A DNA stretch of 64,000 bases, from contig CAWFPD010000007.1 in the NCBI GenBank assembly GCA_963817725.1, positions 215,750 to 279,749 of the forward strand, given 5' to 3'. Position numbers and translations under genes: made by a program. Positions 12,229-60,553 of this stretch are shown here, one piece after another; position 1 is the stretch's first letter; every line of letters starts with the position of its first letter. The notes under the pieces were generated by a model that saw only the letters and a list, made by a program, of their open reading frames with translations, searched no databases and was not told where the DNA came from. This stretch comes from an uncultured delta proteobacterium (GTDB taxonomy: Bacteria; Myxococcota_A; Polyangia; Polyangiales; Houyiibacteriaceae).

Positions 12229-14438
<2,210 letters not shown>

Positions 14439-44840: not shown

Positions 44841-46526
44841 ATGTCGGATGACGAAATGCCGAGCGATGTGCCAACCAAGAGCGGCGATCCGCAGGGGATC
44901 GACGATGAAATCGATGAGTTTGCAGAAAGCGCATTCGATGCCCTCATGATGGGCGAAGACGGAAAGAAAAGCGTAGAGGAGGCAGTCGCCTCCGAGCCCG
45001 TCGACCGTCAGACCGGCGAATACGAGGATGTGGAGCTCGATGACGTGATCATGGTCTCCGACGTTCCTCCGGAAGAGCTTTCCGCCTCGGCGCCACCCTC
45101 GGCGCCACCGCCCTCGGCGCCACCGCCCTCGGCACCGCCGCCTGCTGCGGCTTCGGAACCGCCGGCCTCCGTGCCGCCTTCGGTATCGGAAGTGCCCGTG
45201 ACGAGCGGCGTCGAGGTGGCTCGGTTGCGTTCCGAGATCTCGGAGCTGAAGGCGAAGCTGGCCCAATCCTCCGGTGGCGTCTCGAGCCGGCAGTTTTTGG
45301 ACCTGCGCGAAGCGCTCAACAAGAAGGACAAGGAGATCCTCGAGCTCCGCGACCAAGTCAGCGCTCGCGACAAAGAGATCCTCGAGCTTCGCGACCAAAC
45401 GATTGAGCTGGAACGTTCGCGCGAAGATTTGAACGAGAGAGCAGCAGGCCTGGAGCGTTCCTTGTCGAAGGCACAGGAAGCAATCGCCAGCCTTTCCGAG
45501 GACAAAGAGAACGCGAGCAAGCGCTATGAAGACGTCAAGAGCCGCTTCGAGCGCGAGAAGACGAAGGCCGACGCCCTCGAAGGCGAGCTCGGACGTGAAC
45601 GTGAGGCGCGCGCCGTCGACATCGAAGCCTTGAAGGGAACGCATGACGCAGCCATGGCCAAGGCGCGCGCGATTCATGAAGAGGCGCTCGAGCTGTCCAA
45701 AGCGGAATCAGCTGCTTCTTTGGCAAAGGCCCGCGAAGACCACGAAGCCGCGCTTCACGCCGCCTCGAGCGAGAAGGAAACCGCATTGGCCGCCCTCCGT
45801 TCGGAGCTAGCAGACGCGCAAGCGGCCGCGTTGACGCAGGCCGCTGCTGAGGCGGACGCAGCAAGGCAAGCGGCGCTTTCGGCTCTGCGCGAAGAGCTGG
45901 AAAGCGCAGCCGCCGGCAAACTGGCGGAAGCCGAATCCGAATGGCAGCGGACCTTGGCCGAACGCGAAGCCGCGCTTCAGGCCGAGAAGCAACTCGAGCT
46001 CGACACGCGCGAGCAGGAGCACTCCAAGCAACTGGCAACCCTCGGGCGAAAGCTTGCCGACACGGAAAGCGAGCTAGCGGGCACCCGCGAGCGCGAGAAG
46101 GTGAACGAAGAGCGCGCCGTCGATCTGGAAAGCCAGCTCGAAACGACACAGGCACGTCTTGCCGCTACCGGCGCTCAACTTGCGGAGACGCAACAGACGC
46201 GCGAAAGGCTAGAGTCGGAGCTCGGGCAGACAACGGAGGCCCGCGACACGCTGCAGCGCGAGCTCGAGTCCAGCCAGGCGAGCGTCCAGACGCTCACCGC
46301 AACCAAGCGCGATCTCGAATCACGCGTGGGCTCCCTCGATGCGTTGAAGTCGCAACTCGAATCGAAGCTTTCGATGACCGTCGAGAAGATCGCAACCGAC
46401 GAGGCCTTGCTGGAACGGGTCCGCAAAGCCATGGCGATCGGGCTCAGCCTCCTCGAAGAGCAACAGAGAAATACGTACGGGGAGCTCAGCCCCGAGAGCG
46501 AAGGCGCTTCCGAGGACGCCGAGTAG
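44841..46526 (+). CDS. long coiled-coil protein with acidic N-terminus and PSAPP repeats
   Basis: 561 aa. PPSAPPPSAPPPSAPPP tract, then ~400 aa of heptad-like E/A/L/R/K-rich sequence with duplicated KEILELRDQ. 3' end overlaps the convergent kinase fragment by 41 nt. Confidence 0.7.
   Translation: MSDDEMPSDVPTKSGDPQGIDDEIDEFAESAFDALMMGEDGKKSVEEAVASEPVDRQTGEYEDVELDDVIMVSDVPPEELSASAPPSAPPPSAPPPSAPPPAAASEPPASVPPSVSEVPVTSGVEVARLRSEISELKAKLAQSSGGVSSRQFLDLREALNKKDKEILELRDQVSARDKEILELRDQTIELERSREDLNERAAGLERSLSKAQEAIASLSEDKENASKRYEDVKSRFEREKTKADALEGELGREREARAVDIEALKGTHDAAMAKARAIHEEALELSKAESAASLAKAREDHEAALHAASSEKETALAALRSELADAQAAALTQAAAEADAARQAALSALREELESAAAGKLAEAESEWQRTLAEREAALQAEKQLELDTREQEHSKQLATLGRKLADTESELAGTREREKVNEERAVDLESQLETTQARLAATGAQLAETQQTRERLESELGQTTEARDTLQRELESSQASVQTLTATKRDLESRVGSLDALKSQLESKLSMTVEKIATDEALLERVRKAMAIGLSLLEEQQRNTYGELSPESEGASEDAE
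45084..45142 (+). repeat. 15-bp tandem coding repeat (PSAPP x3-4)
   Basis: cctcggcgccacc(gc) units repeated in tandem. Confidence 0.7.
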
Positions 46527-47222
46527 GCGCCGGACGCGTCGACGCCAGACCGGGTCCGGCCGAGATGGCGCCGCTTTCGGTTGCGCAACGAACCAATAGG
46601 CCGAGATCCCGATGGGCCAGAGGTGGAGGCCCGACCTCGGCGAGCTGCAGCAGAAAGGCCCGTGCGTGCGGAGGCCGGTCCGCCGGATCGGGACGAAGGA
46701 GCGATTCGACCCCATCGACCAGCGGTCCAGGTGCGTCCGGAGCAAGGGCACGGATCGGTTCGTGTCTTCCGCGCCGAGCACGATCCAAGGTCTGTAACTC
46801 GTTGTCTCCGTCGAAGGGTCGACGACCCGCTAGACACTCATAAAGTAAGACCCCGAGGGAAAACAAATCCGACCTCGGGCTGCAAGCGCGACCAAGCGCG
46901 TATTCCGGCGCCATGTAGGCCACTTTGCCTTTGAGCGCTCCGCTCTGGATGCTTCCGGGAAGGTTCGTGGCCTTGGCGATGCCGAAATCGGCGAGCTTGA
47001 TCTCGCCCGCGTTGCTGAGGAGCACGTTCGAGGGTGAAACGTCGCGATGGATGATCCCGGCGGCATGACCTTCATCGTCGGCCGTGTGCGCGAAGTCGAG
47101 CGCCGAGGCGAGCGCATGGGCGAGGTATGAGGTCAGGCCCGAACCGAGCCTGCGCCCAGATGACTGAAGATGCCGCAGCAGCACGCGCAGATCGGTTCCC
47201 TCGATGAGCTCCAACGTCAGGT
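46486..47222 (-). pseudogene. Ser/Thr kinase gene, C-terminal (C-lobe) fragment separated by element insertion
   Basis: Begins at hinge ...LTLELIEGTDL, then HRDVSPSNVLL, DFGIAK, MAPE. No G-loop or VAIK lysine. Upstream of 47222 the frame runs into element DNA. Confidence 0.85.
47211..47222. repeat. attL core (direct repeat CCAACGTCAGGT)
   Basis: Identical to 60625-60636. Encodes LTL of the kinase on the minus strand. Confidence 0.85.
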
Positions 47223-47343
47223 TTTGAACGGCCTGATCGGAGCCTGCCGAGATCATGGCGCTTTTCCTCCAAAGCCTGCAATTCCAGGCTGTTGGAAGAT
47301 CCGTACTGAACGGCGGAGAAACGCACACTTGCGCGGATAATCA

Positions 47344-47392
47344 GTAGCAGCAATAGTAGCAGCGCAGCTTTTGTAGCAGCAATCGTAGCAGC
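47344..47392 (+). promoter_or_regulatory. four direct GTAGCAGC motifs (candidate recombinase arm-type or regulator sites)
   Basis: GTAGCAGC at 47344, 47356, 47373 and 47385, arranged as two GTAGCAGCAATNGTAGCAGCGCAG units between attL and int. Confidence 0.6.
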
Positions 47393-47430
47393 GCAGGATC
47401 AGAACCGGCGCATAGGTAGTGAGGGGGCAA

Positions 47431-48765
47431 ATGGCACATAAACATCCGGGCGTGACGCTCATGAAGGAGCAGCCAGCACGCGAGTGGGTCGACCCCCAGA
47501 CGGGCCGGAGGCGCCAAAGTGGCGCTATCTATTTCCGGGCGCGCTATCGCGATCCGGCGACGGGTAGATACCGCTACGAGACGCTTCCGCGGGAGTTCGT
47601 CCACGAGAAGCAGGTCTACGACACACGCCTGAAGCATGCGCGGGCGCTGTGGGCAAAGTTGAAGGCGGATAAGCTGCTCGTCGAAGGAGCGAAGCATCGG
47701 GTCAAGCCGTCGCCTGTTGGACAGCACGCGATTCCACTCGCGGACGCGATCGAACGATACTTCGGAGACAAGCCACGATTGAGCGCTAAGACGGTTGAGC
47801 AGAAGCGTCGGAGCCTCAACGATTTTCTCGCATGGTGCGCTGATCATAAGATCCACAGCACGGACGAGCTTACAGCGGCGGCGCTGCGGGACTGGCGAAC
47901 GCATGTCGAGTCGCGCGGCCTTCGCATACCGGCCAAGGGAGCTGGCGTCGGACACACGAAGAAGCAAACCGACAAGCCTCGGGCGGATTGGTCGGTTGCT
48001 ACTGAGATCGGCCACGTGGCGACGGCGCTAAAGCATCTTCGGAGTCAGCGAGAGCTGTTTCGGCATATCGATGCGGACGACTTCGCCGAGCGTCTTAAGA
48101 CCTTCAAGGTCACGACGCGACGGAAGAAGAAGCCGCTTAGTCGGAAAGATCTTCCACGCGTCGTCCAGGCGTGTATTGAGCGTGATGCGGAGACGCAGCC
48201 GAACGGAAGCCCGCGTCATCCGGAGGTCGCACCCTTCTTCGTATTTTTGCTTCTGAGTGGTTTACGACCAGGCGAGGCGTTCGACCTGAAGTGGGACTCG
48301 GTGGAGCTTGACGAAGACGACGAGGGCAAAGGCGTGATCTACGTCCATGCGAGCAAGACCGGCGTCGAACGCATGGTCGAACTCTGGGTGAGTCCCGCGT
48401 GTCGACGCTTGTTGATCGCGAAGAAACAACGGGATGGTGGCGAAGGCAAGGTGTGGTCTCTGACTCCGGTGCAGATCTTGAGCGCCTACACTTCTATCCG
48501 GCGCAAGACGCAGCTGAAGCATTTCAGCCCCCAGGTGTGCCGGGTGACGGCGGGTTCGTATTTAATCAACTCCGCGATATACCCCCGATCTGTGGAGCGA
48601 CGGACGGCGGAGCAGCTTGGCCACGACGAGCGAACCGCGCGCGCGTACTATTGGGGGACGGTGCGAGGTCTCGACCAGGATGCGCGGACGATTGAAGAGG
48701 TCATGGGAATCAAGGCTGAAATGGAGCAGATCCTCGAGTCGATCCAACCGAAAGCCCGGCGATGA
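47431..48765 (+). CDS. tyrosine recombinase / phage-type integrase
   Basis: Catalytic-domain pattern LLLSGLRPGEAFDLKWDSVEL, HFSPQVCRVTAGSYL, LGHDERTARAYYWG. ATG at 47431 after GAGGGGG (tracked GTG at 47419). Confidence 0.9.
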   Translation: MAHKHPGVTLMKEQPAREWVDPQTGRRRQSGAIYFRARYRDPATGRYRYETLPREFVHEKQVYDTRLKHARALWAKLKADKLLVEGAKHRVKPSPVGQHAIPLADAIERYFGDKPRLSAKTVEQKRRSLNDFLAWCADHKIHSTDELTAAALRDWRTHVESRGLRIPAKGAGVGHTKKQTDKPRADWSVATEIGHVATALKHLRSQRELFRHIDADDFAERLKTFKVTTRRKKKPLSRKDLPRVVQACIERDAETQPNGSPRHPEVAPFFVFLLLSGLRPGEAFDLKWDSVELDEDDEGKGVIYVHASKTGVERMVELWVSPACRRLLIAKKQRDGGEGKVWSLTPVQILSAYTSIRRKTQLKHFSPQVCRVTAGSYLINSAIYPRSVERRTAEQLGHDERTARAYYWGTVRGLDQDARTIEEVMGIKAEMEQILESIQPKARR

Positions 48766-49010
48766 CGACGCCGAAGAAGCGACCGACGAAGCGCGCGCCG
48801 AAGAGTGCGAAGGCGAAGAAGGCCGCGCCGAAGAAGCGTGCGCCGAAGAAGGCCCCGGCGAAGAACGGCCCACTATTGCCCCCCGACCATCCTCTGCGAG
48901 CGAAACTTGAAGGCGTGCTGGGATTGGTTTTTATGAGTGCGCACCAAGAGCGCGACCTTGGCCTGCTCGAGCTATACGAAGGACTACGAGAGCTGATTGA
49001 GTCGGATTGA
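48762..49010 (+). CDS. small basic protein with histone-H1-like KKAAPKK tail
   Basis: ATGA overlap with the int stop. TTPKKRPTKRAPKSAKAKKAAPKKRAPKKAPAKNG followed by a short helical domain. Confidence 0.6.
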   Translation: MTTPKKRPTKRAPKSAKAKKAAPKKRAPKKAPAKNGPLLPPDHPLRAKLEGVLGLVFMSAHQERDLGLLELYEGLRELIESD

Positions 49011-49049
49011 ACTTGGGGCTCGCAGAAATGGGGGGAGACTAAACTAGCT

Positions 49050-49490
49050 GTGCACAAGTTCTATGAACGAGTCGACGGCATGGTGGCGACGTTCGTTAAG
49101 GAGGAAGCGAGCGAGCGCAATAAGGTCGGGGCTGATTCGTGGTCGGAGGACCGCGCCAAGATCCGGGGATATATCGCAAACCCAATACGCGTGGCTGAAG
49201 CCTACATAACCCTTCTAAGCTTCTCGGACCTCCGGTTCGGGGTTCCTTTGTCCTGCTCGGGTCACGAGATAGTTGCGGGTCTTTCCGGTGAGGACACCGA
49301 GGCGGCGGAGCGGTTCCGCGTCGCTGTCGACAAGGTGTATACGGAAATCGAGCCGATGCTCAAGGAGGCCTGGACCCCCCAAACAGGCAAGGCGATTATG
49401 CGGGCGGGCTTGCTTGCCTTGGGTCTGCCAAAGAAGCGCAGTGAGTATCTGATCTCTCTCGTGCCCAAAACTGATCCCAATTTGGGGTAG
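49050..49490 (+). CDS. hypothetical protein
   Basis: 146-aa ORF, GTG start, protein-like composition. No motif recognised. Confidence 0.5.
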   Translation: MHKFYERVDGMVATFVKEEASERNKVGADSWSEDRAKIRGYIANPIRVAEAYITLLSFSDLRFGVPLSCSGHEIVAGLSGEDTEAAERFRVAVDKVYTEIEPMLKEAWTPQTGKAIMRAGLLALGLPKKRSEYLISLVPKTDPNLG

Positions 49491-49615
49491 CGGGCTCTTT
49501 GCGTTTTTGCGTGCGCCATTCTCTGCGCATGCGTTTAAGACATAACCAGGCGCGGGACTCGGCCGTCGAAGACACCGACGAGAGTTCCGCAATTGAACAA
49601 CTGATCCGCCCGGCA

Positions 49616-49831
49616 ATGGAGGCCGCCTACCCGGTCAACCTCACCCGGGCGATGCTCAAAGAGGCGCTTCAATGTTCCGATCGGTTCATCGACGAACTGA
49701 CCGAAACGGGGGAGCTCCCATCCATCCAACGCAAGCGCGGTAAGTCCGGTTCTCGGCGCATCTACCCTCGCGAAGGCGTCATTCGATATCAAATCCGTAA
49801 TGCGAAGTCGGAGGGACGCTATCATGCATAA
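49616..49831 (+). CDS. excisionase/AlpA-like HTH protein (start uncertain)
   Basis: LTRAMLKEALQCSDRFIDELTETGELPSIQRKRGKSGSRRIYPREGVIRY resembles HTH_17/Xis-family proteins. In-frame ATGs at 49499, 49529 and 49616. Confidence 0.5.
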   Translation: MEAAYPVNLTRAMLKEALQCSDRFIDELTETGELPSIQRKRGKSGSRRIYPREGVIRYQIRNAKSEGRYHA

Positions 49832-50006
49832 CCCGTCCGACGATCAGCTCTACGAGCTCGTACTCGAAACCCTCGTCACCGATGGCGTCCTCGCGCGCAC
49901 CGCTTGGCGCACACCGGACGGCCACGTGATCTACGTCCTAAGCGAGAGCTTCGATGTAGCCGTCCACGACATGCCGTGCGTGGTCGAAGAGGGGCGGCTG
50001 GTATGA
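49824..50006 (+). CDS. hypothetical small protein
   Basis: 60 aa. Start overlaps the previous stop, and its stop overlaps the next start (ATGA). Confidence 0.4.
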   Translation: MHNPSDDQLYELVLETLVTDGVLARTAWRTPDGHVIYVLSESFDVAVHDMPCVVEEGRLV

Positions 50007-50608
50007 CGATGGTCGCTACCACCGTCACGATCGAGCGCCATGCGCTCCGTGTCGCCGTCGAGACCGCCGCAGTGGCGATGAGCACCGACGATCTTCGGTC
50101 CCACCTCGCTGGTGTCCACTGCGAGTTTCGTGGCGACGCCTTGATCACGTGCGCAAGCGATGGGCACCGACTGGTCCAGACCACCGTTCCGGTCCTCGAG
50201 CTCGAAGGTCAGGCGGCGGCGGCCTTCATCCGACGCGAAGACACGAAGCGCCTTCTGAAGACGTTGCGCTGCAAGAAATCCCAACAGTCCGAGCCGGTCA
50301 GGGTGGAAATCGGAGAGACGGTGAAAGTGACCGGCACCTTCGAGACGGTGGAGCTTGAAAACGGTAATGACGAGCCGACGCCTCCATACGGCAAGGTGAT
50401 CCCCCCACGTCGCGAGCCCGACGACAAAGGTCCAGGTCTCTTCGCACTGAATCCGACGTACTTGGCCGATCTGGGTCTGCTCGGTCGGCTGCTTCCATCC
50501 GCCAACGGCGCTGCGATCAGCACGACGTCAGCACGTGAGCCGGTTCGCATCGACGTCGGCAACAAAGAGATCTCCTCGATCTATCTCATCATGCCGATGC
50601 GGATCTGA
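50003..50608 (+). CDS. truncated DNA polymerase III beta sliding-clamp-like protein (about 1.5 clamp domains)
   Basis: DLRSHLAGVHCEFRGDALITCASDGHRLV parallels DnaN domain II (DVRYYLNGMLFE..L..VATDGHRLA). PPYGKVIP parallels FPDYRRVLP. C-terminus LNPTYLADLG...IYLIMPMRI parallels FNVSYVLDVL...YVVMPMRL. Only 201 aa versus about 370. Confidence 0.75.
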   Translation: MTMVATTVTIERHALRVAVETAAVAMSTDDLRSHLAGVHCEFRGDALITCASDGHRLVQTTVPVLELEGQAAAAFIRREDTKRLLKTLRCKKSQQSEPVRVEIGETVKVTGTFETVELENGNDEPTPPYGKVIPPRREPDDKGPGLFALNPTYLADLGLLGRLLPSANGAAISTTSAREPVRIDVGNKEISSIYLIMPMRI

Positions 50609-50727
50609 TCGTGCCGCACCGGAGCAATCAACCCGACCCACGAACGGCCGCGATTGTCGTGGGCTCGGTCAACCCAGCGGCTGAAGGAGGTGCCCATGGG
50701 CATCATTTTTGAAAGAGGCGGGTCATC

Positions 50728-50931
50728 ATGTTGACGCCCGTCGAGTCAGTGAAACGAGGCGATCGTCTCATGCACCCGCATAGCGGTTGGATGGCGGTCA
50801 ACTACGCACCCGAGCCCGTCTTGGGTCGGGACGCGTGGGAACTTGAGGTCATCGACGACCGGAGTGAGATTCGCGAGCTTTGGTTCTTCGAGGGCGACCT
50901 CATCGAAGTGGAGGAGCGCCATGACGGCTGA
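50728..50931 (+). CDS. hypothetical small protein
   Basis: 67-aa ORF; its stop lies close to the next start. Confidence 0.4.
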   Translation: MLTPVESVKRGDRLMHPHSGWMAVNYAPEPVLGRDAWELEVIDDRSEIRELWFFEGDLIEVEERHDG

Positions 50932-51277
50932 TCGAGAGAGTGGGCTCACCACTACGTCCGGCCTGACGGGGTTCAATAACGTACAGCCAGGCGACGGGTT
51001 CTTGACGATCACCTCACCGACGACCGGCCTACACGCCGTGATCGACGCCGGAGATATTCTCGATATCGAGGAGATGCTTCAGGGCATTCGCCTCACGGTG
51101 AAAACCGCGAGCGGCTCCGAAGCGTTCGAAGTGGACGGCGACCCGCGCGTCCTGCGTGCAAACCTCAACACCGCCTTGGTGTTGGCGAACGCTCGCCGTG
51201 GTCGACGAGAACCGACACAGCTTGGATTTTCAGAGCGTGTGTTGGAGGTGACCTATGCGGAGGACGACGATGCATAG
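50921..51277 (+). CDS. hypothetical protein
   Basis: 118 aa starting from ATG 50921 (MTADRESGL...). Overlaps its neighbours at both ends. Confidence 0.45.
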   Translation: MTADRESGLTTTSGLTGFNNVQPGDGFLTITSPTTGLHAVIDAGDILDIEEMLQGIRLTVKTASGSEAFEVDGDPRVLRANLNTALVLANARRGRREPTQLGFSERVLEVTYAEDDDA

Positions 51278-52025
51278 CCCCAAAAACCAGAAAGGCCGGC
51301 GGAACGCCGACCCAGCTGATGACAAGCTCCCGGTCAAGGAGAATGACTCGAAGGAGTCTACCATACCGGCCAAGGCGTCCAAGCCTAGGTCTGAATACGA
51401 GGCGGCCGTCGATGCGTTCGACGATCTGATCTCGCTCCCGGAAGTCTCCGGAACCGGCCCCATCAAAGGCGTTCCAGAGCCTGTCGAATACTCGATCTCG
51501 ACCTATCTCGACCCGAGTCGCTGGACGATGGTTGATCCTCGGGAGGAATACGCGCGCGTCGTGACGCTCCTGCGAGATCCGAATCGGCTCGCGACACGCA
51601 AAGGCGAGCGAGGTTTCAACCTCTACCTCGTGACCGCCCCCATCGCGCTTCAGCTTTTGGAGACATATCCAAACCTGCGGCGCAATCTTCGCAAGTACGA
51701 TCTCCGGGTTGCCAACTACAGGCACACTCACGAGATCGTCATCTACTGCATCATGCATCCCGTTGACGGGAATGAGATGAGCGAGGCGGCCTACCGGAAG
51801 AAGCTCCTATGCGTCGCCGACTGCCAACGGGATTGGCATATGGTGGGCCCAACGCCCGACGGCGAGATCGGCACATTCCCAACGGAGCTACCGAATCGCG
51901 ACCCGGTCAACTTTGACAAGCTCTATCGCGGAGCGCCTATGAAGGAGATCCTTTACAAGGCGTTTCGAGATCGGGTGATCGACGATTGGGACCACGCCGT
52001 CATTCGAGAGATCCGAGGCGTCTAG
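51255..52025 (+). CDS. hypothetical protein (immediately upstream of the polymerase)
   Basis: 256 aa with a basic, disordered N-terminus followed by a globular domain. No motif recognised by eye. Confidence 0.55.
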   Translation: MRRTTMHSPKNQKGRRNADPADDKLPVKENDSKESTIPAKASKPRSEYEAAVDAFDDLISLPEVSGTGPIKGVPEPVEYSISTYLDPSRWTMVDPREEYARVVTLLRDPNRLATRKGERGFNLYLVTAPIALQLLETYPNLRRNLRKYDLRVANYRHTHEIVIYCIMHPVDGNEMSEAAYRKKLLCVADCQRDWHMVGPTPDGEIGTFPTELPNRDPVNFDKLYRGAPMKEILYKAFRDRVIDDWDHAVIREIRGV

Positions 52026-52028
52026 CTT

Positions 52029-53879
52029 ATGAATCTGGAGGCGCTGCGCCACGAACTCGATCTCGTGGTCTACGACACCGAGTTTCGTGTCGACGAGTCG
52101 GAGGGTGAACGACCCTACCCATGGTGCCATTCGTGGATGAGTCTCCGCGACCGGATACCACACAAGGAATTCCTTGATGGGGTTCATCCTTCGGCTCGGC
52201 GCCATCCGGGCTTTCACACGCGACGTATCCCGGTCGCTTACAACCTCACGGCGGAGGCGAAGGTAATGTTGGTCGAAGGTCGGCCCCTGCCTCCATATGG
52301 GATCGATCTTTATGCGGAGCATCGTTTGCTCACGAATGGCATCGAATGCGGCAACCGCTTGATCGATGCGGCGAACTTCTGGGGCGTCGATTGTATGGAG
52401 TCGATGTACAAGGATCAGTGGCACAAACGTTTCATCGAGACGGAGCCGCCGTTCCCGCAGGAGTGGAAGGAAGGAGCACTCGACTACAACTTCGAAGACG
52501 TGGAGGTCACCACGAGGCTTCTCGAAGTCATGGCGTCTCGGATCGACCTTGGCCATGCGTTGATTCGTGGGGCGTACATGCTTGCGCTCGCCGAGATTGA
52601 GCACCTCGGGTTTCCCGTCGACGTCCCGCTCTACCTTTGGATGCAGGAGCATTGGGACGAGATCAAACAGCGCATGATCGACGCCTGCCCATACGCTGTA
52701 TTCGAGGGCCTTAGCTTCAATCACGAGAAGTTCGAGAGGTTTCTCGAGGAGGAGCTTGGCGTCACGTCATGGAAGCGAACCCCATCGGGTCGGCTGCTCC
52801 TTCAAAGCAGGTACTTCGCGCAAATGGCGTACGAGTATCCGCAGCTCGAAGGCATCCACCGAATCAAACGCCAGCTCGATACCTTCGACACATTCACGCT
52901 CGGCATTGACGTGAAGGATGCACGCAACCGCGCCGCGTGGTGGCCCTTCAAGAGTAAGACCGGCCGCAATCAGCCCAAGGCGCTGAACGTCTTTAGCAAT
53001 CATTCACGGTACGTCCGCGGACTCGGCACGCCACCACCGGGGCGCGCGCTATGCGAGCTCGACTACGAGCAACAGGAGTTCGCAATCGTCGCCGCGCTGA
53101 GCGAAGACCCGAGGATGATCGAGAGCTACCTCAGCGGCGATCCATACATGGCGCTGGCGGTACTGGCGGGAGCCGCACCTCCTGATGCCACGAAGAAGAC
53201 GCATAAGCTGGTTCGAGACCGGTATAAGGTGACAGCGCTCGCGGTTCAGTTCGGTAGCACCGGAGCCGGAATCGCACGACGCCTGGGCGAGCCTCATGCC
53301 GAGGGCGCGATCCTGCTCCGACAGTATGATGAGACGTACGAGGTCTTTCGCGAGTGGCAACGGCTGAAGCGCGCAAACGCTCGGTACGGCGAACCAATGG
53401 TGCTCTCGCACGGATGGCGGCTGTTCGGGGGCGAGGACATCGGCTGGCGCACGATCGACAACTTCTGGGCGCAGGGTTCGGGTAGCGAAATGCTGAGGTC
53501 GGCCGTGGTCAAGATACGGCAGGCAGGGATCGACATCGTGGCGCTGGTCCACGACGCGATCATCATCGAGGCCGAGGTCGACGACATCGAGGACGCGGCG
53601 GCTACAGCCGCTCGGATCATGGGCGACGTCAGCGAGAAGATCCTGCTAGGCCGGCTCCGGCTCCGGACCGAGGCGAAGTTCGTCGGACCCAGCGATCGCC
53701 TGCTTTGCGAGGAGGCCATGTCCATGTGGAACCTCGTCACCGGTCCGTACTTCGCCGAGCTCAGTGGGAACGGCATTCGCCCCGCAGCGCGAATCCCAGG
53801 ACGTTTCAGTGCGAACCTTGGGTCGCCGCAGTGCGAACCCCAGGACGTTTCAGTGCGAACGCCGTTCGCAACAGGGTAG
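52029..53879 (+). CDS. family A DNA polymerase with 3'-5' exonuclease domain (phage/plasmid type)
   Basis: Exo I VVYDTEF; Exo III YNFEDV; TGRNQP; motif A LCELDYEQQEFAIVA; motif B RDRYKVTALAVQFGS; NFWAQGSGSEML; motif C LVHDAIIIEAE. Confidence 0.9.
   Translation: MNLEALRHELDLVVYDTEFRVDESEGERPYPWCHSWMSLRDRIPHKEFLDGVHPSARRHPGFHTRRIPVAYNLTAEAKVMLVEGRPLPPYGIDLYAEHRLLTNGIECGNRLIDAANFWGVDCMESMYKDQWHKRFIETEPPFPQEWKEGALDYNFEDVEVTTRLLEVMASRIDLGHALIRGAYMLALAEIEHLGFPVDVPLYLWMQEHWDEIKQRMIDACPYAVFEGLSFNHEKFERFLEEELGVTSWKRTPSGRLLLQSRYFAQMAYEYPQLEGIHRIKRQLDTFDTFTLGIDVKDARNRAAWWPFKSKTGRNQPKALNVFSNHSRYVRGLGTPPPGRALCELDYEQQEFAIVAALSEDPRMIESYLSGDPYMALAVLAGAAPPDATKKTHKLVRDRYKVTALAVQFGSTGAGIARRLGEPHAEGAILLRQYDETYEVFREWQRLKRANARYGEPMVLSHGWRLFGGEDIGWRTIDNFWAQGSGSEMLRSAVVKIRQAGIDIVALVHDAIIIEAEVDDIEDAAATAARIMGDVSEKILLGRLRLRTEAKFVGPSDRLLCEEAMSMWNLVTGPYFAELSGNGIRPAARIPGRFSANLGSPQCEPQDVSVRTPFATG
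53795..53860 (+). repeat. 22-bp direct repeat x2 (CCCAGGACGTTTCAGTGCGAAC) with a third CAGTGCGAAC copy
   Basis: Copies at 53795-53816 and 53839-53860, with CAGTGCGAAC also at 53829-53838. All lie within the last ~30 codons of the polymerase ORF. Confidence 0.8.
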
Positions 53880-53932
53880 TCCTTCCTAGTCTTTCCATAG
53901 TCCATCCAGAGTCTTTCCCTTTAAGTCTTTCC
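53878..53932 (+). promoter_or_regulatory. iteron-like array: five phased 9-mers AGTCYWTCC
   Basis: Copies start at 53878, 53888, 53899, 53910 and 53924 (spacing 10, 11, 11, 14 bp). The array fills the gap between the polymerase stop and the wHTH gene start. Confidence 0.7.
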
Positions 53933-54349
53933 GTGAGTAAACCAACACCACCTCCGTTCATCGCCAACGCCCCGCTGACCTGGCTCCGCCGGGCCCAGGA
54001 AGCAGGGGGCGAGCATGGGCTTTGCCTCGCGTTGGTGATCTGGAGAGAGTGTCGACTCGGGCACACCCGACGGAGGCACAGCCGAGGGACAATCCCGGGT
54101 TTCGTGAAGCTCCCGTACGGAAGGGCCGCCGCCTTATTCGATCTCTCGCGCCGCACGTTCGGCCGGAAGATCGACCAACTCGAAGAGGCCGGCTTGATCG
54201 CGATCCGACGTCCTGGAGGGAACGCCGCCTATCAGGTGCGGGTTCTGGCGCTCCCCGGCGAAGAGCATTGGACGAACGTGTGGCTCGGTCTGCCACCACC
54301 ACCTGAACAGCTCGACATCGAGTTTGCTGGGCCTAGCGGTCGGAACTAA
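53933..54349 (+). CDS. winged-helix DNA-binding protein (candidate replication initiator or repressor)
   Basis: GTG at 53933. LFDLSRRTFGRKIDQLEEAGLIAIRRPGGNAAY resembles a MarR/Rep-type wHTH. The upstream part of the tracked ORF overlaps the polymerase. Confidence 0.55.
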   Translation: MSKPTPPPFIANAPLTWLRRAQEAGGEHGLCLALVIWRECRLGHTRRRHSRGTIPGFVKLPYGRAAALFDLSRRTFGRKIDQLEEAGLIAIRRPGGNAAYQVRVLALPGEEHWTNVWLGLPPPPEQLDIEFAGPSGRN

Positions 54350-54438
54350 CCGCGTTTCCCAAATTGGGCACTGACGCCTAATCTTGTTGAAGACTCGCTT
54401 CGCGTGGTGGTGCTGTAGAACGGGAGGCTGCGGCGTTG

Positions 54439-55080
54439 CTAGAGCCGTCGATCAAACTTCAAGAAGTAGGGCTCGGGTGGGACGCCCTGCCAGTCGGCGG
54501 GCCACTCCAACGTCTTGATTCCGCAGGGGACCCTAGCATCGCTGCTAGTGTTGAAGGGCTCTGAAATCTCAAGGCAGTTATCTCCGATTTTAGCGCTGAA
54601 GATAGTCACATCAGGCCCCTCAATGCCGTTGAATCCGTAACGGACGGTGTTGGGCTGGTAGGTCCCAAACGGAGAAACTGGCTGCCACGGCAGCGTGGAT
54701 GGGTCTGGATGTTCGGGTATCGCTTCGTCAATGCACGCGCCGTCGTCGGCTAGGTAGACGGGCTCGCCTTGGCAACCAGGTTCGAGGAAAAAGGCAGGGA
54801 TGGGGGGTGAGCCTTCGGAGGGCGTTGGGTCGATCCGCGTGAACTGCCACGGCTGCTCATAGCGCGGGTCGTCAGACTTGATCACCTGGACGTGCACAAC
54901 CCAATCAAACTCGGGCATGTAGAAAGAGGCGCTGGTCCCACTGAAGTCCAGTACCTCCCATTCGGCACCGCTGCCATCGACGATGTAGAGCCCGCTCCGT
55001 TCAAGCGGCCTCGGCCGTACGTCACAGGTGTAGCCAACGATCGCGATCAGCCCGATCAGAAGAACGACTCTTCGTAGCAT
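54439..55080 (-). CDS. secreted/lipoprotein-like hypothetical protein
   Basis: N-terminal MLRRVVLLIGLIAIVGYTC; AGGAGG upstream; 213 aa. No recognisable domain. Confidence 0.6.
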   Translation of the reverse strand: MLRRVVLLIGLIAIVGYTCDVRPRPLERSGLYIVDGSGAEWEVLDFSGTSASFYMPEFDWVVHVQVIKSDDPRYEQPWQFTRIDPTPSEGSPPIPAFFLEPGCQGEPVYLADDGACIDEAIPEHPDPSTLPWQPVSPFGTYQPNTVRYGFNGIEGPDVTIFSAKIGDNCLEISEPFNTSSDARVPCGIKTLEWPADWQGVPPEPYFLKFDRRL

Positions 55081-55358
55081 CTCAACCTCCTGTCGCAGCC
55101 TGCGCCCGGAGCTGGGGACTGCTCACGGTTTCAGCGGAGTCTCCCTTGAATCACGAATCGGGGGTCACTGTCTAGGGCCGGACGAGTGGATATGATGACA
55201 CTACGCGCCCGTGACTGCCGAAAGCTGTAATATTATCATCATAGATACAGCGACAGTGCACGATGCGGAGTGGGACTGGTCGCGGAGCCAGCACGGAGCA
55301 CGTCGCGCGCTCGGGTTCTCTCACGCGTGTGCCGATCCGAGCCCGGAGCGAGCCCGGA

Positions 55359-55379
55359 GTAGCAGCGTTTCGTAGCAGC
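55359..55379 (+). promoter_or_regulatory. internal pair of GTAGCAGC motifs
   Basis: GTAGCAGC at 55359 and 55372 (13-bp phase) inside a 630-bp non-coding gap. Confidence 0.5.
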
Positions 55380-55710
55380 ACGCCGTGTTCGGCAATGATT
55401 CCGGGTGATTCCGAGCCCGGACCACCACCCTCAATAGGTAGAGACCCACCCCGGTCTAGGCAAAAGGTACCGAAATGTGGGTGGCGGTGGTCACGAAACG
55501 CACCAAATTCCGTCCAAATAGCGCCCCATCCCCAAATGGGGTCACTGCTCCCTCCCAGATTCGCCATAACGGCCCCTAGCTGCCCGTCTGAGGCGTTTAT
55601 CCGGTTCGCAGGTACCTGACTAGCGTCTAGTACCGTTTAGGGACCGTCTGGTTGACAGGATGTAAAGTTGGCCGCCGCCTACGGCTGCACCTCAAACGCA
55701 CCCACGTCGC

Positions 55711-56214
55711 TCAGAACACGAATCGCGATCGTGCAAGGTCCCATTGCACGCGGTGCGGTGTCGCGTTGTCGTGCGCTCGCTTCAGCTCGCGCACCTGTCG
55801 CTTGCGGGCGCGCCATCGGCCGCCTGAGATGGCCATCCCCAGGACACCTCCGAATCCTACAAAGCCCCCTGCCAGCGCAACGCTGGCCCCGGCGACGCCC
55901 CGGTCTAAGTCAGACCAAGGATCGCTTCCGATCGACGCTGACGCCATGGTCGCGCCGCCGGCTATCATAAGTACTGCCCCCACACCGAAAAGAACGGAAG
56001 AACCGACAAGGCCGTTTCTTGCTCGCTGGACGCGAAGCTGCATCTCCTCAAGCGTGAACCCATCGCCTGTGCGCGGCGGACTCGGCTCAACCTCAACTCC
56101 AGCAGTGTACTGCTCGAGCTTCAGCGCACGATTGGTATCTTCTTTTGCTTGTGCGCTCGCGCCTTGGGGCAAAGCCGCCACCATCACACACAACACGCTT
56201 CCCAGACGCCACAC
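55711..56214 (-). CDS. secreted membrane protein, hypothetical
   Basis: Signal peptide MWRLGSVLCVMVAALPQGASA and two Gly-rich TM segments (SSVLFGVGAVLMIAGG, ALAGGFVGFGGVLGMAI). Confidence 0.55.
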   Translation of the reverse strand: MWRLGSVLCVMVAALPQGASAQAKEDTNRALKLEQYTAGVEVEPSPPRTGDGFTLEEMQLRVQRARNGLVGSSVLFGVGAVLMIAGGATMASASIGSDPWSDLDRGVAGASVALAGGFVGFGGVLGMAISGGRWRARKRQVRELKRAHDNATPHRVQWDLARSRFVF

Positions 56215-56297
56215 GACAACCTCCCGATATGGCTCGGCATTGGTCTAGCGAGTCTACATCAACGATTACCGGGAGTGGAAGGCGGGTGTCACCGGCG

Positions 56298-56629
56298 ATG
56301 AAACCAATTGTCGGCTCACTGCTCTGTCTCGTTCTGGGTTCACTCATCGTCGTGGGGATGCGGGGATTCCAACGGTACAAACGGCCTTGGCGGCGATCTT
56401 GTCTGCGCCTCAGACGACCCCGAGTATGGCAACACGATCCCCTGTCCGGGTGGAACGGAAACCCTCGACTTCTGCGTCAATACCGGCAATGGCGACTGCT
56501 ACTACGTGCTCGGTGGAGACCAAGGTCGGCTGCGGCAACTGCATAGAAAACAACTTCAACCTCGGCAGACTGCGGCTCGCGCAAAGCAATGGGGGCGCCA
56601 GCGCGGAAGGCTGTAGCCGCCGGTGTTGA
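56298..56629 (+). pseudogene. possible twice-frameshifted Cys-rich lipoprotein gene
   Basis: Signal peptide MKPIVGSLLCLVLGSLIVVG in one frame. CGDSNGTNGLGGDLVCASDDPEYGNTIPCPGGTETLDFCVNTGNGDCYYVLGGD in the next. VGCGNCIENNFNLG...EGCSRRC in the third. Confidence 0.3.
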
Positions 56630-56690
56630 CGCAGTTGTTCCGGTTGACTCTGTTGACACAATCGGCGAAAATTACCTACAGGCGCGGACC

Positions 56691-56885
56691 TTGGCGAAGC
56701 GACTTATCAGCTTTCGAATTGACGACGAGTTAGCGGCCGAGCTCGACCGCGATATGGCACACGCCAAGCGCGAAGCCGAGGCACGGGATAGCGAGTTTTC
56801 GGAGCCGATTTACCTCCGGATGCTGCTCCGCAAAGGCCTCCGGTCGCGCGAGCGCCAACGCAAGGTCCGCAAGAGCAAACCTTAA
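56691..56885 (+). CDS. ribbon-helix-helix (CopG/Arc-like) protein, start uncertain
   Basis: KRLISFRIDDELAAELDRDMAHAKRE has an RHH beta-strand/helix pattern. Tracked start at 56589; TTG at 56691 avoids overlap with the upstream ORF. Confidence 0.5.
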   Translation: MAKRLISFRIDDELAAELDRDMAHAKREAEARDSEFSEPIYLRMLLRKGLRSRERQRKVRKSKP

Positions 56886-56908
56886 TCAAAACCCCCAATA
56901 GGATCCCG

Positions 56909-57244
56909 ATGATCAAAGCCCCAGATGGTTTCAACTATCGCTTTACAGCAGCAGCGCCGGTCACCATCACCGATTACGTTCTGCCCCACCGCACCGACAG
57001 TGCGAAGCACCAACGGATAGCGGACAAGCTCGACACCATGATCGCGAAGATAGCCGAGCTACATCAAAGGTTCCTCGAGATCGAGGAGCAAGAGCGCAAA
57101 GATGCCTTCGGCACTTGGTGGCGCGAGGAATGCGACCCAAGCACGATGAAGCCGGAGAAGCTGCGTAGGTCCAGGCTTGACGCGTTTGCAAAGCGAATCG
57201 CGAAGAGCGCCAGCTTCCGGCAGCGTTTGCTGGAGGACGCATGA
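56909..57244 (+). CDS. hypothetical protein
   Basis: 111-aa helical ORF. ATGA overlap with the next gene. Confidence 0.5.
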   Translation: MIKAPDGFNYRFTAAAPVTITDYVLPHRTDSAKHQRIADKLDTMIAKIAELHQRFLEIEEQERKDAFGTWWREECDPSTMKPEKLRRSRLDAFAKRIAKSASFRQRLLEDA

Positions 57245-57678
57245 GTCAGCCGGTCACTGTGCGCGAAACGGGGAAAGCCTCGACTCCTAGGAAAGCGGTC
57301 CCGCCGAGTAAACTAACTACTGCCGCGTTTGAGGTTCCAGATCCGGCTGAGCCGCGAGCGGTCGCCACGTTGAACCCACGAACCAAGCTCGATCGTTTCA
57401 TTGCAGCTCTTGATTCGGTTCCGTGTCTTACGCCGCTGCTCGAGCGAACAGGCTATCCGGTTGTTTCAATTGACGGGCGGGGTCCTGGCGTTGTCGGCTT
57501 TCGCTGTCCCAAGTGCGGAACGAGCGTCATCAGCGCAAGCGGCCATCCCAACGTTCGGCTTACGAGCGGGCGTTATGGTACCGACCTTCAACCCCAACGC
57601 CTCGTCTGTCTGGTCTGCCGGTGGGATGCAACAGCTTCAACCGTAGCGCCGATCGTGCTTGGCGGAGACGCAGTATGA
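57241..57678 (+). CDS. zinc-ribbon hypothetical protein
   Basis: CPKCG...CLVC four-Cys motif. ATGA overlaps at both ends. Confidence 0.5.
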   Translation: MSQPVTVRETGKASTPRKAVPPSKLTTAAFEVPDPAEPRAVATLNPRTKLDRFIAALDSVPCLTPLLERTGYPVVSIDGRGPGVVGFRCPKCGTSVISASGHPNVRLTSGRYGTDLQPQRLVCLVCRWDATASTVAPIVLGGDAV

Positions 57679-58091
57679 CTCAGTACGAAACTTTGCGAAT
57701 GGTTGCGCCCGAAGCTGAGCCGAAGCTGAGCCGATTCACTGCAGCACGTTACGACGGTACGATCGCGGTTGACGTTTTGGCTGAAGAGGCATTGGAAAAG
57801 ATCCTACCGGCAGAACACAGCACAACGGCCGACCTGCTATTGATCGAAGCCTTCGACCTTGGCCAAGCCGTTGTGATCGCCAAGAGCGGTGACGAACGGT
57901 TGCCGTGGCGCAGGACGCGGATCACACGCGACGGTCAAGTGGCTGAGAAGTGGCACCGGCAGCCGATGAATGCGACGGAACGAAGCCGACTCGACAGGGT
58001 GCTACGGGCCGAACGCTTGAAGCGCGAGGACCAGCTACGGCGCGAGGTTATCTCGTTCGAGCAGCAGCGACGTGCCGAGCTTGGTTTGTGA
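57675..58091 (+). CDS. hypothetical protein
   Basis: 138 aa from ATG 57675. GTGA overlap with the next ORF. Confidence 0.5.
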   Translation: MTQYETLRMVAPEAEPKLSRFTAARYDGTIAVDVLAEEALEKILPAEHSTTADLLLIEAFDLGQAVVIAKSGDERLPWRRTRITRDGQVAEKWHRQPMNATERSRLDRVLRAERLKREDQLRREVISFEQQRRAELGL

Positions 58092-58279
58092 CGCACCCTT
58101 GGCAGAACCAGGACTACGCGCAGTCGCAGCTCCTCGACATCATCGCGCAAGTGCTAGGAGCTCGACCGGACGAAACCGGGGAGACTGCGTATCCCGAAGA
58201 GAGCATCAACGAGGCAGTCATTCGCATTGCGGACGCTCTCGAGCGTATTGCTTCGGTGATGGACAAACAGCCGGACTGA
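58088..58279 (+). CDS. hypothetical small protein
   Basis: 63 aa, GTG start overlapping the previous stop. Confidence 0.4.
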   Translation: MTHPWQNQDYAQSQLLDIIAQVLGARPDETGETAYPEESINEAVIRIADALERIASVMDKQPD

Positions 58280-58520
58280 TCACGGACAGGTTGAAGCGCC
58301 AGGGAGAATTCGTGGCATTGGTGCCACCTTGGGCGCGGCTTCCTGACCCAGAGCTAGCGTTTCCCTCCACTCTTGTGCGGTTAGGATCGCGGGCTCCGAC
58401 GTAGCCAGGTTCGTTTGGGTTTCCTTTCCCTGAGCGAGCCTGTGCTAGGTCGTTTTCCCTTTGGCTTACCGATTTTCGCATTCTGCCGTGGGGTCCCTTA
58501 CCCTGTGTGATGGGGGCACC

Positions 58521-58856
58521 ATGGGAAGTTGGTTCCGGCTGTTTCTGTTTGTCGTGTGTCTGGCGGCATGTGAGACGGAACCAGACGCGCCAGAGCCGCC
58601 GAAAGAAGCATCGAGCGGGGAAGAGAGTCTGTGTCGCACACTGCAGCACGAGCGCCTGATGGAAGATCTCGGCCCAGGCGACGTTCTTCTTTGGCCTGCG
58701 CGCCCGAGAATGCCCCCCCAGCGAGAAGGCGATTGTCGCATAGGGCTGGATGGCCTTCAGGCCACGCCGACCCCAACGGAACGGGCCACCCCTGTCCTGG
58801 AGCAGGACAAGCCGTCTCGAACCGCTCACTCAAGGACCAGTAACGCAGAAGAATAG
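58521..58856 (+). CDS. small lipoprotein, hypothetical
   Basis: MGSWFRLFLFVVCLAAC lipobox. Confidence 0.5.
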   Translation: MGSWFRLFLFVVCLAACETEPDAPEPPKEASSGEESLCRTLQHERLMEDLGPGDVLLWPARPRMPPQREGDCRIGLDGLQATPTPTERATPVLEQDKPSRTAHSRTSNAEE

Positions 58857-58905
58857 GGTGTTGGAGATGATCTGTCGCAGTGAAACAAGCGAGCCGAATC
58901 GAGTC

Positions 58906-59475
58906 ATGGGACGGGGGTTGATGAATGTGATCGCGCCCTTGACCTTCCTCGTGCTCTCAACCGCGTCCATCGCAAGCTCGCAATCACTCAGTGCGCTTGT
59001 CCAAAAGGAGGTGGCACAGCACATCAAGAATGCCGAGCTGACGATCGGATCGACTCGTTCGTTCTTCATGGAAGCGGCGATGGCGGCCGATATGTCCTGC
59101 CAGAATCTCAACGACGAGGCTACGGCGGTCGCTTGCTTCCCATCAGGGGCAAAGGGTTTAACGTGCAACACGGCACGGTTCGGCCCCAAAGATCTGATAG
59201 CTTCATACTCGCTCGACTTTGGCCTGCAGAGAATGTGCTCGGTTGCTAAATCCTACATGTTTTCCAAGTATGGGAAGCCTCATCGCTCGGAAACTGCCGG
59301 CGGTGGCTCATCCGTATTCTATTGGAGTTACCCGCAATTAAAGAACAGACTGCTTAGCTATCAGGAGTTCCCACCCGTCACTCGCACGACGCAATGGGGA
59401 ACCACCGAAGTCGCACAATGGTGCCATGTAACATACGGCGTCGGTCAGCTTGTCCGCCCCTTGCGGCTTCCGTGA
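58906..59475 (+). CDS. secreted hypothetical protein
   Basis: Signal peptide MNVIAPLTFLVLSTASIASSQS. Start at 58867, 58906 or 58921. Confidence 0.55.
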   Translation: MGRGLMNVIAPLTFLVLSTASIASSQSLSALVQKEVAQHIKNAELTIGSTRSFFMEAAMAADMSCQNLNDEATAVACFPSGAKGLTCNTARFGPKDLIASYSLDFGLQRMCSVAKSYMFSKYGKPHRSETAGGGSSVFYWSYPQLKNRLLSYQEFPPVTRTTQWGTTEVAQWCHVTYGVGQLVRPLRLP

Positions 59476-59512
59476 GTGAGTTTTGCGCCTTCGATGCTGC
59501 GCGCTAGTTGAA

Positions 59513-60532: not shown

Positions 60533-60553
60533 GTAGCAGCAAACAGTAGCAGC
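60533..60553 (+). promoter_or_regulatory. pair of GTAGCAGC motifs near attR
   Basis: GTAGCAGC at 60533 and 60546 (13-bp phase), about 72 bp from the attR core, in the same orientation as the attL cluster. Confidence 0.6.

Follow-up and report, generated by a model that had tools for sequence, protein, structure and literature searches.

An integrative element of a Myxococcota genome carries a family-A DNA polymerase within a conserved gene module found in a large family of small elements

A 64,000-nucleotide stretch of DNA (here called the window) from an uncultured delta proteobacterium of the Myxococcota (GenBank assembly GCA_963817725.1, contig CAWFPD010000007.1, positions 215,750 to 279,749) was found to carry a discrete mobile element that bears an integrase, can be delimited exactly, is absent from the corresponding site in relatives and also exists as a circle. 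The element occupies window positions 47223 to 60636 and is a 13,414-bp insertion that inactivates a host Ser/Thr kinase gene. Within it lies a module consisting of a gene for a family-A DNA polymerase (PolA), a partner gene directly upstream of it (C1), two arrays of short repeats and a gene for a winged-helix protein (C2), and this C1-PolA-repeats-C2 arrangement is what the members of a large family of small (8 to 14 kb) integrative elements have in common. On balance, we favor the view that the 13.4-kb element is integrative and plasmid-like and replicates by its own PolA. An earlier note on this DNA, written from the sequence alone, had described an integrase-bearing island with its own replication module. 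The island was borne out by the tyrosine integrase, the 12-bp repeats, the empty site in relatives and the circular form, all of which were found. The proposed module stood in part: PolA, the 256-amino-acid (aa) protein, the repeats and the winged-helix protein are conserved in hundreds of genomes, but the beta-clamp-like protein that had been counted with them does not belong to the core.

The G+C content of the window is approximately 63 to 65%, dropping to about 59 to 60% from 47 kb to 61 kb, and a plus-strand string of genes that opens with the tyrosine integrase runs through the region singled out by the earlier note. The integrase gene (47419 to 48765, plus strand; probable start ATG at 47431, 444 aa) was recognized by Pfam Phage_integrase (E = 2.4e-6) and PHROG 1 (E = 9e-26). 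Two copies of a 12-bp direct repeat, CCAACGTCAGGT, representing the core of the attachment (att) site, were identified at 47211 to 47222 and 60625 to 60636; the element proper begins at 47223, directly after the left copy, and ends with the last base of the right copy. Translation placed the two parts of the kinase gene on either side, both on the minus strand, with the 3' part (..LELIEGTDLR.. onward) at 46486 to 47225 and the 5' part, of 93 codons and ending ..HYLTLV*, at 60620 to 60901. When rejoined, the kinase shares 70 to 78% identity over residues 1 to 333 with intact orthologs from Polyangiales and Sandaracinaceae-like Myxococcota genomes, and seven orthologous kinases read ..HYLTLELIEGTDLR.. 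(HYLTL followed directly by ELIEG) unbroken through the junction point. As the kinase orthologs are uninterrupted across the junction and no element genes were found near them at those loci, the 47223 to 60636 segment was identified as an insertion in the kinase gene.

Repeat pairs of the type GTAGCAGCAAnnGTAGCAGC lie inside both element ends, at 47344 to 47396 and 60533 to 60557, which are the positions expected of integrase arm sites. At the left end these are two GTAGCAGCAAnnGTAGCAGCGCAG repeats upstream of int, candidates for the P' arm, whose position is kept in a related metagenome contig, L001; at the right end, a GTAGCAGCAAACAGTAGCAGCGCCG pair found by a repeat search is a candidate P arm site. 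A third pair of the arm type, GTAGCAGC, is located inside the element at 55359 to 55379, far from the ends, and has a counterpart in L001 at 579 to 600. The element sits in a kinase gene, whereas its relatives mostly use tRNA or tmRNA genes as targets. The only tRNA gene in the window, a tRNA-Cys gene at 36059 to 36132 on the minus strand, adjoins an aconitase gene and is unrelated to the element; it was rejected as an attachment site because 11 kb of DNA that includes host genes separates it from the integrase. On Myxococcota contig CAVOVB010000004.1, the first 192 residues of the kinase are present twice (L104 and L105), approximately 16 kb apart, and no element genes were found beside these copies within the flanks examined, which exclude the stretch between the two copies.

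Using the 251-aa form of C1 as a look-up query, six contigs were retrieved. ENA sample ERZ25039500 yielded both an integrated copy of the element, on a 414,888-bp contig (L204), and a separate contig of 13,385 bp (L206). Positions 1 to 5100 of L206 correspond to window positions 55518 to 60617 with 100% identity, positions 5101 to 13385 correspond to 47236 to 55516 with 99.6% identity, and the last base of the contig abuts its first, apart from one base in a run of A. The right end of the element is therefore joined to its left end in L206, making the contig a circular permutation of the element, i.e., an excised circle of the kind that the earlier note had advised looking for. In L001, a 12.3-kb contig, both sets of arm repeats stand side by side upstream of the integrase, which is the arrangement of an attP site. 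No circularity by end overlap was seen for L001 (examined without its first 37 nucleotides [nt]) or for a second related contig, L002, which begins in a tRNA-Glu gene and is therefore integrated.

The PolA gene (52029 to 53879, plus strand) encodes a 616-aa family-A DNA polymerase with a 3'-5' exonuclease domain, as determined from alignment and from matches to Pfam DNA_pol_A (E = 1.8e-18) and PHROG 17 (E = 5e-37). Across an alignment of 30 sequences (A1), comprising the window enzyme and 29 homologs, the exonuclease residues D16/E18 (Exo I), D93 and Y153/D157 (Exo III) are invariant, as are D345/E350 of motif A, R396/K400 of motif B and H508-D509 of motif C. Judged by this conservation, the enzyme keeps every residue needed for synthesis and proofreading, in line with the Exo I, Exo III and motif A, B and C assignments made previously. 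A decayed polymerase, named in the earlier note as an outcome that would undo its interpretation, was rejected, with all catalytic residues found intact on formal alignment. The residue following HD in motif C (A510) is Ala, and position 3 of motif B is Leu (Leu404), in 30 of 30 sequences; in a profile search of solved structures, vHDA of the family aligns with vHDe of Pol I. The VHDA sequence to which attention had been drawn is thus real but not peculiar to the window copy, and its invariance across the family marks it as a family trait and not as decay. A known phage or plasmid origin of the enzyme was also rejected, with mycobacteriophage polymerases and chromid polA genes as the best matches at 25% identity. 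No close relative was present among 50,697 phage records (best identity, 25%), and cultured phages and plasmids gave no match above the same value. In the 52029 to 52268 region, the deposited call for this gene (537 aa; P0001, L205) starts at an internal Met and leaves out D16/E18 of Exo I, residues that are conserved in the family.

Directly upstream of PolA, at 51255 to 52025 on the plus strand, lies the gene for the 256-aa (or 251-aa) partner protein C1. It had been listed in the earlier note as a protein of no recognized family and proved to be a conserved companion of the polymerase: aligned with hhalign to the 214-aa C1 family of the relatives, it scored a probability of 97.3% (E = 2.4e-11). 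C1 matched no Pfam, NCBIfam or PHROG family, and an exhaustive profile search recovered 4,458 clusters at 50% identity, of which 2,962 had an E value of 1e-10 or better. An AlphaFold2 model built from 41 sequences gave a predicted local distance difference test (pLDDT) score of approximately 93 for residues 78 to 256 and a predicted template modeling (TM) score of 0.70. The model had no significant neighbor in the PDB (lowest E value, 0.17; TM score, ≤0.17) or among the viral models of BFVD (best E value, 0.009; TM score, ≤0.34). Its residues 79 to 167 form, in order, three strands, a helix and two strands, and proteins with an oligonucleotide/oligosaccharide-binding (OB) fold were among its best PDB matches, though weakly (E = 0.5 to 2; TM score, ≤0.16); the model thus gives a hint of an OB-like barrel in this region.

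Two repeat arrays occupy the end of the PolA gene and the gap after it. The first, at 53785 to 53876 within the nonconserved 3' tail of the PolA open reading frame (ORF), is iteron-like and comprises four direct copies of CAGTGCGAAC at 22-bp spacing (53785 to 53860), followed by an inverted copy. The second, at 53877 to 53935, holds five copies of AGTCTTTCC at approximately 11-bp spacing (53879 to 53932), has a G+C content of 0.44 compared with 0.60 for the element, and is a candidate unwinding or operator region. Its repeats run directly up to the GTG start codon, at 53933, of the C2 gene (53933 to 54349, plus strand), which encodes a 138-aa winged-helix protein, a candidate iteron-binding initiator or regulator that aligns with 31 relatives (A6). 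Both arrays and this gene are where the earlier note had placed its phased repeats and winged-helix gene. The window C2 gave weak Pfam matches to HTH_20, HTH_28 and Crp-like domains, and its counterparts across the family match MarR, Crp, GntR and HTH_36-type domains. The locus shows one characteristic of iteron replicons, namely phased direct repeats adjoining a candidate initiator gene.

To examine the repeats across the family, Tandem Repeats Finder was run on all loci, and 37 arrays with a period of 20 to 24 bp were detected, 14 of which lie in the stretch from −200 to +150 relative to the PolA stop codon; as this zone makes up 2.35% of the sequence, arrays are enriched there approximately 16-fold. 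Arrays of 21 to 24 bp lie at the 3' end of PolA in 14 to 15 relatives, many of the repeat units contain a short palindrome, and AT-rich repeats of 10 to 13 bp often follow. A TGCGAAC core and the TAGTCTTTCCA unit are shared by the window and L001, which encode C2 proteins with 76% identity, and more distant loci carry different repeat units. The mean minimum G+C content around the PolA stop codon was 0.37, compared with 0.45 for random stretches of the same loci; this is a weak point, since any intergenic region tends to be AT-rich. Scans of the element and the origin region for Rfam families, promoters and terminators found nothing.

The module extends well beyond this genome. PolA has more than 160 relatives in the databases searched, and collections holding one genome per species contain at least 532 loci in approximately ten phyla, where the module recurs with variable cargo; the earlier note had proposed a search of this kind, limited to Myxococcota genomes. 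Bacterial hosts include Planctomycetota, Acidobacteriota, Myxococcota, Alpha-, Beta- and Gammaproteobacteria, Nitrospinota, Desulfobacterota, Verrucomicrobiota and Elusimicrobiota, and archaeal hosts are represented by Methanoperedens (L080) and one Thermoplasmatota genome. Most relatives are approximately 35% identical to the window enzyme, the only close ones being those of the metagenome contigs L001 (83%) and L002 (51%). Neighbor clustering took in 82 loci, and from the 78 with PolA a core in fixed order was obtained: C1 (approximately 214 aa; 64 of 78 loci), PolA, C2 (approximately 135 aa; 55 of 78) and a tyrosine integrase (approximately 400 aa; 45 of 78), the last being replaced in some loci by other tyrosine or by serine recombinases. 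A tRNA or tmRNA gene is situated right beside the integrase in approximately 20 loci, and att repeats delimit elements of 8.1 kb (in Stieleria marina), 9.2 kb and 13.5 kb.

PolA proteins from Betaproteobacteria, Gammaproteobacteria, Myxococcota and Planctomycetota share 55 to 62% identity, and three PolA loci are located on a single Bryobacterales chromosome, OZ252030.1 (L035, L045 and L281). Such identity across phyla, together with the multiple copies, indicates frequent horizontal movement. The PolA proteins of Hydrogenophaga flava and a Roseateles genome (L210 and L211) are 95% identical, which suggests a recent intergeneric transfer. The cargo varies from element to element. L001 and L002 add a Dam methylase, a RecE-like exonuclease and a ParB-like nuclease, the exonuclease and the ParB-like nuclease being carried by L002. 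Elsewhere in the family, an MmeI-type restriction-modification enzyme (Caenispirillum bisanense, L009, 1511 to 4702), PIN and Mrr proteins and an oxidoreductase were found, and NACHT-associated nuclease domains also occur in members other than the window element. Given the restriction enzyme and the PIN, Mrr and NACHT-associated nuclease cargo, the elements may act as small defense islands.

Searches of the element ORFs with Pfam, PHROGs, NCBIfam and PADLOC found no capsid, portal, terminase, tail, lysis, conjugation, helicase or primase family, in agreement with the earlier note, which had recognized none by eye and had held that ordinary phage structural or packaging genes would speak against its interpretation. 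The matches in NCBIfam and PADLOC were confined to generic PolA, DnaN and helix-turn-helix (HTH) models, far below cut-offs. L001 and L002 likewise have no helicase, primase, virion, packaging or conjugation family. For more than 60 loci, the upstream neighbors of C1 (97 proteins) were scanned; they included one Prim-Pol, one protein with a ResIII domain and no virion protein, and a conserved helicase or primase upstream of C1 was rejected accordingly. The Prim-Pol, a 548-aa protein encoded directly upstream of C1 in L082 (7497 to 9143), belongs to a 9.2-kb element at a tRNA-Arg gene and is the only element-borne primase seen. It is possible that divergent versions of virion or packaging proteins are present among the family-less ORFs.

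Integration at the 12-bp core and the excised circle having been observed, we infer the replication steps as follows. The tyrosine integrase, probably aided by a small HTH protein encoded at 49529 to 49831, would excise the element from the kinase gene at the 12-bp core to give the circle. C2 would then bind the 22-bp iterons in the 3' tail of PolA, which would serve as an origin and probably also as the operator of C2 itself, whereupon the adjacent, AT-richer 11-bp repeats would melt and the proofreading PolA, with its partner C1, would copy the circle. In the branch to which the window element belongs, a short clamp homolog may raise processivity. As the element encodes neither a helicase nor a primase, fork opening, and perhaps priming, would be supplied by the host. 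Alternatively, and speculatively, C1 and PolA might self-prime in the manner of CcPol-MP of SCCmec (PMC7581432, PMC10061031).

Several points weigh against replication by this route. With no helicase or primase of its own, the scheme leans on putative host factors, and C1 has no recognizable fold, leaving its role a guess. C2 has one winged helix where classical iteron initiators have two, and the repeats could be autoregulatory operators. The circle could be a mere excision product, its replication being a step that we infer. At the L206 junction (5095 to 5105; window 60617/47236), 32 nt (TCCTATACCAACGTCAGGTTTTGAACGGCCTG) that include the 12-bp att core are missing, which reflects either a mistake in the consensus, the assembly being visibly noisy, or a true deletion, resulting in an episome unable to integrate. 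In addition, a 242-aa gene at 48762 to 49490 is split in the window copy by a TGA codon at 49008 to 49010 (C to T, changing CGA for Arg to a stop).

The element could also be a phage satellite or a degraded prophage, which would excise, replicate and spread in the virions of a helper phage and use some of its family-less ORFs for packaging or helper interference; we consider this unlikely. P4-like and PICI-type satellites are laid out as an integrase, an excisionase, a replication block and a block of small genes, and the present elements, at 8 to 14 kb, resemble them in having an integrase, an excisionase-like HTH gene, a replication block and then small family-less genes. The clamp-like protein of the window element has matches in phage families (PHROG 3007, 12598 and 947), the RecE-like exonuclease and ParB-like nuclease of L002 are both of kinds common in phages, and PolA genes that are nearly identical are found in different genera without conjugation genes in their vicinity. 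However, neither Pfam nor PHROGs identified a capsid, portal, terminase, head-size or packaging family in the window element, L001 or L002, the neighbors of C1 described above include no virion or packaging family, and the closest polymerase in the phage records is only 25% identical. A satellite lifestyle would, moreover, be compatible with a self-replicating element, to which it merely adds a route of transfer.

It could also be argued that C1, PolA and C2 are themselves cargo, forming an auxiliary cassette for repair, mutagenesis or defense in which C2 is a repressor acting on operator repeats. The repeats are indeed operator-like in lying directly upstream of the C2 start codon, no helicase or primase accompanies the block, PADLOC gave a weak match to RTasPolA (DRT) (E = 4e-12, palm region only), and the subfamily to which these polymerases likely belong, CHEAP, was published as "cellular auxiliary" enzymes that coexist with Pol I (PMC10201439). 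Yet, apart from this block and a recombinase, no part of the elements is constant, and the recombinase itself swaps between tyrosine and serine types; a block that stays constant while the recombinase type changes behaves as a replication core and not as cargo. What is truly cargo elsewhere in the family (MmeI-type enzyme, oxidoreductase, PIN and Mrr proteins) varies, a free circular form exists, and the proofreading residues are kept, which is not the case in mutagenic polymerases. The cargo interpretation was therefore judged to be decidedly unlikely. Highly improbable, finally, is a small capsid-less virus with a pleomorphic, membrane-wrapped particle formed by secreted and membrane proteins of the right half: plasmaviruses and pleolipoviruses have comparable small circular genomes with an integrase, to which the circular genome of approximately 13 kb, its 5 of approximately 11 right-half ORFs with a signal peptide, lipobox or transmembrane segments and its spread between genera with no recognizable transfer genes may be likened, but no similarity to any viral protein family was found, the right-half genes are not conserved outside the close kin of the window element, and envelope proteins are also common as plain cargo or exclusion factors.

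The clamp homolog mentioned above is a 201-aa protein encoded at 50003 to 50608 on the plus strand, consisting of domain II of the beta clamp and a reduced C-terminal domain, as judged from Pfam (DNA_pol3_beta_2, E = 6e-10), TIGR00663 dnaN (E = 1.7e-10) and alignment with PDB structures. Its residues 8 to 136 align with approximately residues 131 to 253 (domain II) of the beta clamp in solved structures, and residues 172 to 201 align weakly with residues 340 to 368, where YLIMPMRI faces YVVMPMRL. The earlier description of a 1.5-domain clamp was fair in this respect, the alignment covering domain II and, weakly, the last 30 or so residues. Compared with bacterial DnaN and with the short homologs of PHROG 3007 and 12598, the protein shares a clear domain II and C-terminal strands that include the MPMR motif; unlike DnaN, whose three domains form a dimeric ring, it has only approximately 1.5 clamp domains, with domain II and approximately 30 C-terminal residues as the only parts that align. 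The matches to PHROG 3007 and 12598 are of full length, and the label of these two families, "RusA-like Holliday junction resolvase," is probably wrong because they match a beta-clamp homolog over its full length. A single-sequence structure model of the protein had a pLDDT score of 33 and was not used. The clamp homolog occurs only in copies of the window element and in L001 and is therefore an accessory of that branch.

The remaining genes of the element are small and mostly family-less. The 242-aa gene at 48762 to 49490 (plus strand) follows the integrase gene and has no family match; its product has a Lys/Ala/Pro-rich N-terminal tail that is histone H1-like. The ORF at 49050 to 49490, which the earlier note had treated as a gene of its own, is actually the 3' part of this nonsense-split gene, and the CGA codon is intact in four other copies of the element (L204, L205, L206 and L208). 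The small HTH gene at 49529 to 49831 (plus strand) is weakly excisionase-like (Pfam HTH_69, E = 1e-3; HTH_17, E = 0.011), and L001 has a homolog with 45% identity in the same position. Two small ORFs of 67 and 118 aa, conserved in L001, occupy 50728 to 51277 (plus strand). The right half of the element holds small proteins without relatives. These include a secreted 213-aa protein and a 167-aa membrane protein encoded at 54439 to 56214 on the minus strand, with the GTAGCAGC pair between them, and an operon of seven small ORFs at 56589 to 59475 on the plus strand with no family match, which encodes a lipobox protein, a signal-peptide protein and a zinc-ribbon protein. The zinc-ribbon gene is split into two ORFs here (57241 to 57678 and 57675 to 58091, overlapping in an ATGA stop/start at 57675 to 57678) and is a single ORF of 253 to 268 aa in L001 and L002. 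A minus-strand gene at 59513 to 60217, identified from gene calls, encodes a 229- to 234-aa protein with hydrophobic segments predicted at both ends. Beyond the element, the host genes upstream encode aconitase, a sulfotransferase, TatA, PhaR, an extracytoplasmic function (ECF) sigma factor with its anti-sigma factor, and a coiled-coil protein, and those downstream encode an aminotransferase and LexA.

The polymerase family of these elements very likely corresponds to CHEAP, PolA cluster #15 of Czernecki et al. (NAR 2023, PMC10201439), to which it was matched by the published description. The CHEAP enzymes are bacterial (mainly proteobacterial) and from Methanomicrobia, coexist with Pol I, and have all exonuclease and polymerase motifs with Leu at position 3 of motif B (PMC10201439). 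A "broken thumb" that rests on a C-terminal helix is a further mark of the subfamily, whose type enzyme, that of Ideonella dechloratans (WP_151124575), combines fast polymerization with a strong exonuclease; the cluster is the closest relative of SCCmec CcPol in the published phylogeny (PMC10201439). The present family agrees in every feature compared: in length (approximately 580 to 620 aa), in its intact exonuclease and polymerase motifs, in the Leu at motif B position 3 and in occurring alongside Pol I in Proteobacteria and Methanomicrobia (the Methanoperedens locus), with the window enzyme forming a divergent branch that shares approximately 35% identity with most of the family. Among curated models, the nearest belong to an actinobacterial "bifunctional exonuclease/polymerase" family, which fits the APEX/CHEAP supercluster of the same work (PMC10201439). 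No Ideonella locus was among the best 80 of two genome scans. Czernecki et al. treat the enzymes as cellular and make no mention of integrases, C1, C2 or iterons (PMC10201439).

Replication and priming modules based on PolA are known from SCCmec (PMC7581432, PMC10061031), and PolA-SSB primases on mobile elements of Bacillota have been described by Rice as truncated polymerases with OB partners and helicases (PMC10061031). CcPol-MP-Cch2 of SCCmec shares with the window element a family-A polymerase on an integrative element, a small obligatory partner gene and site-specific recombinases. However, the exonuclease domain of CcPol is mostly lost and that of the window PolA is complete with its catalytic residues; MP is a small OB-fold protein encoded downstream, whereas C1 is a protein of 200 to 250 aa encoded upstream with no significant OB match; SCC elements always carry a helicase, and the window element has none; and SCC elements use serine recombinases, in contrast to the mostly tyrosine type of the present family. 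The truncated exonuclease domain and the adjacent replicative helicase that typify PolA-SSB primases are thus both lacking here. Pipolins and casposons (PMC5695915, PMC11551731), self-synthesizing elements, are the functional analogs: they, too, are small and integrative, have direct repeats at their ends, often reside at tRNA genes, encode their own DNA polymerase, carry variable cargo including defense genes and can be circular episomes. Their polymerases are of family B and not family A, the Cas1 of casposons is absent from the present elements, and C1, C2 and the iteron arrays have no counterpart there. Iteron-controlled plasmid replicons have in common with the window the phased direct repeats of approximately 22 bp beside an AT-richer stretch, adjoining a winged-helix gene; classical initiators, however, have two winged-helix domains and recruit host polymerases, whereas here a winged-helix protein of approximately 135 aa is accompanied by the element's own polymerase.

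Full-text searches turned up no account, within the literature covered, of integrative elements that encode PolA and have this architecture. The statement in the earlier note that no such element was known holds to that extent; as PolA modules on SCCmec are known, it is limited to this architecture. The element family was, then, not found described, the enzyme subfamily has probably been named, and integrative elements with a polymerase of their own are a known concept. Since neither C1 nor C2 matches a curated family, the elements have gone unannotated.

If the module is a replicon, it would represent a third polymerase solution, proofreading and of family A, among integrative elements with their own replicase, on a scale of more than 500 genomes and thousands of C1 lineages. 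More tentatively, and with considerable doubt, C1-PolA-C2 might define a major unrecognized class of integrative elements that replicate themselves with PolA, as pipolins and casposons do with family-B polymerases, extending over thousands of lineages from Planctomycetota to Methanoperedens, with CHEAP enzymes as their replicases, C1 as a partner of new fold through which the polymerase starts or sustains synthesis with no primase or helicase of the element's own, and the 1.5-domain clamp as a new ring, e.g., of four subunits and six domains. The elements raise the mechanistic questions of how replication would start without a helicase or primase and what role a 1.5-domain clamp would play. 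For annotation, C1, PolA with HDA, C2 and iterons would make a marker set with which to find small islands that carry restriction systems and other defense-type genes. If the replicon interpretation is true, a compact replicon of three genes and an origin would operate across distant phyla, possibly providing a broad-host vector backbone, and a characterized polymerase subfamily would be recast from a host auxiliary enzyme to the replicase of a mobile element.

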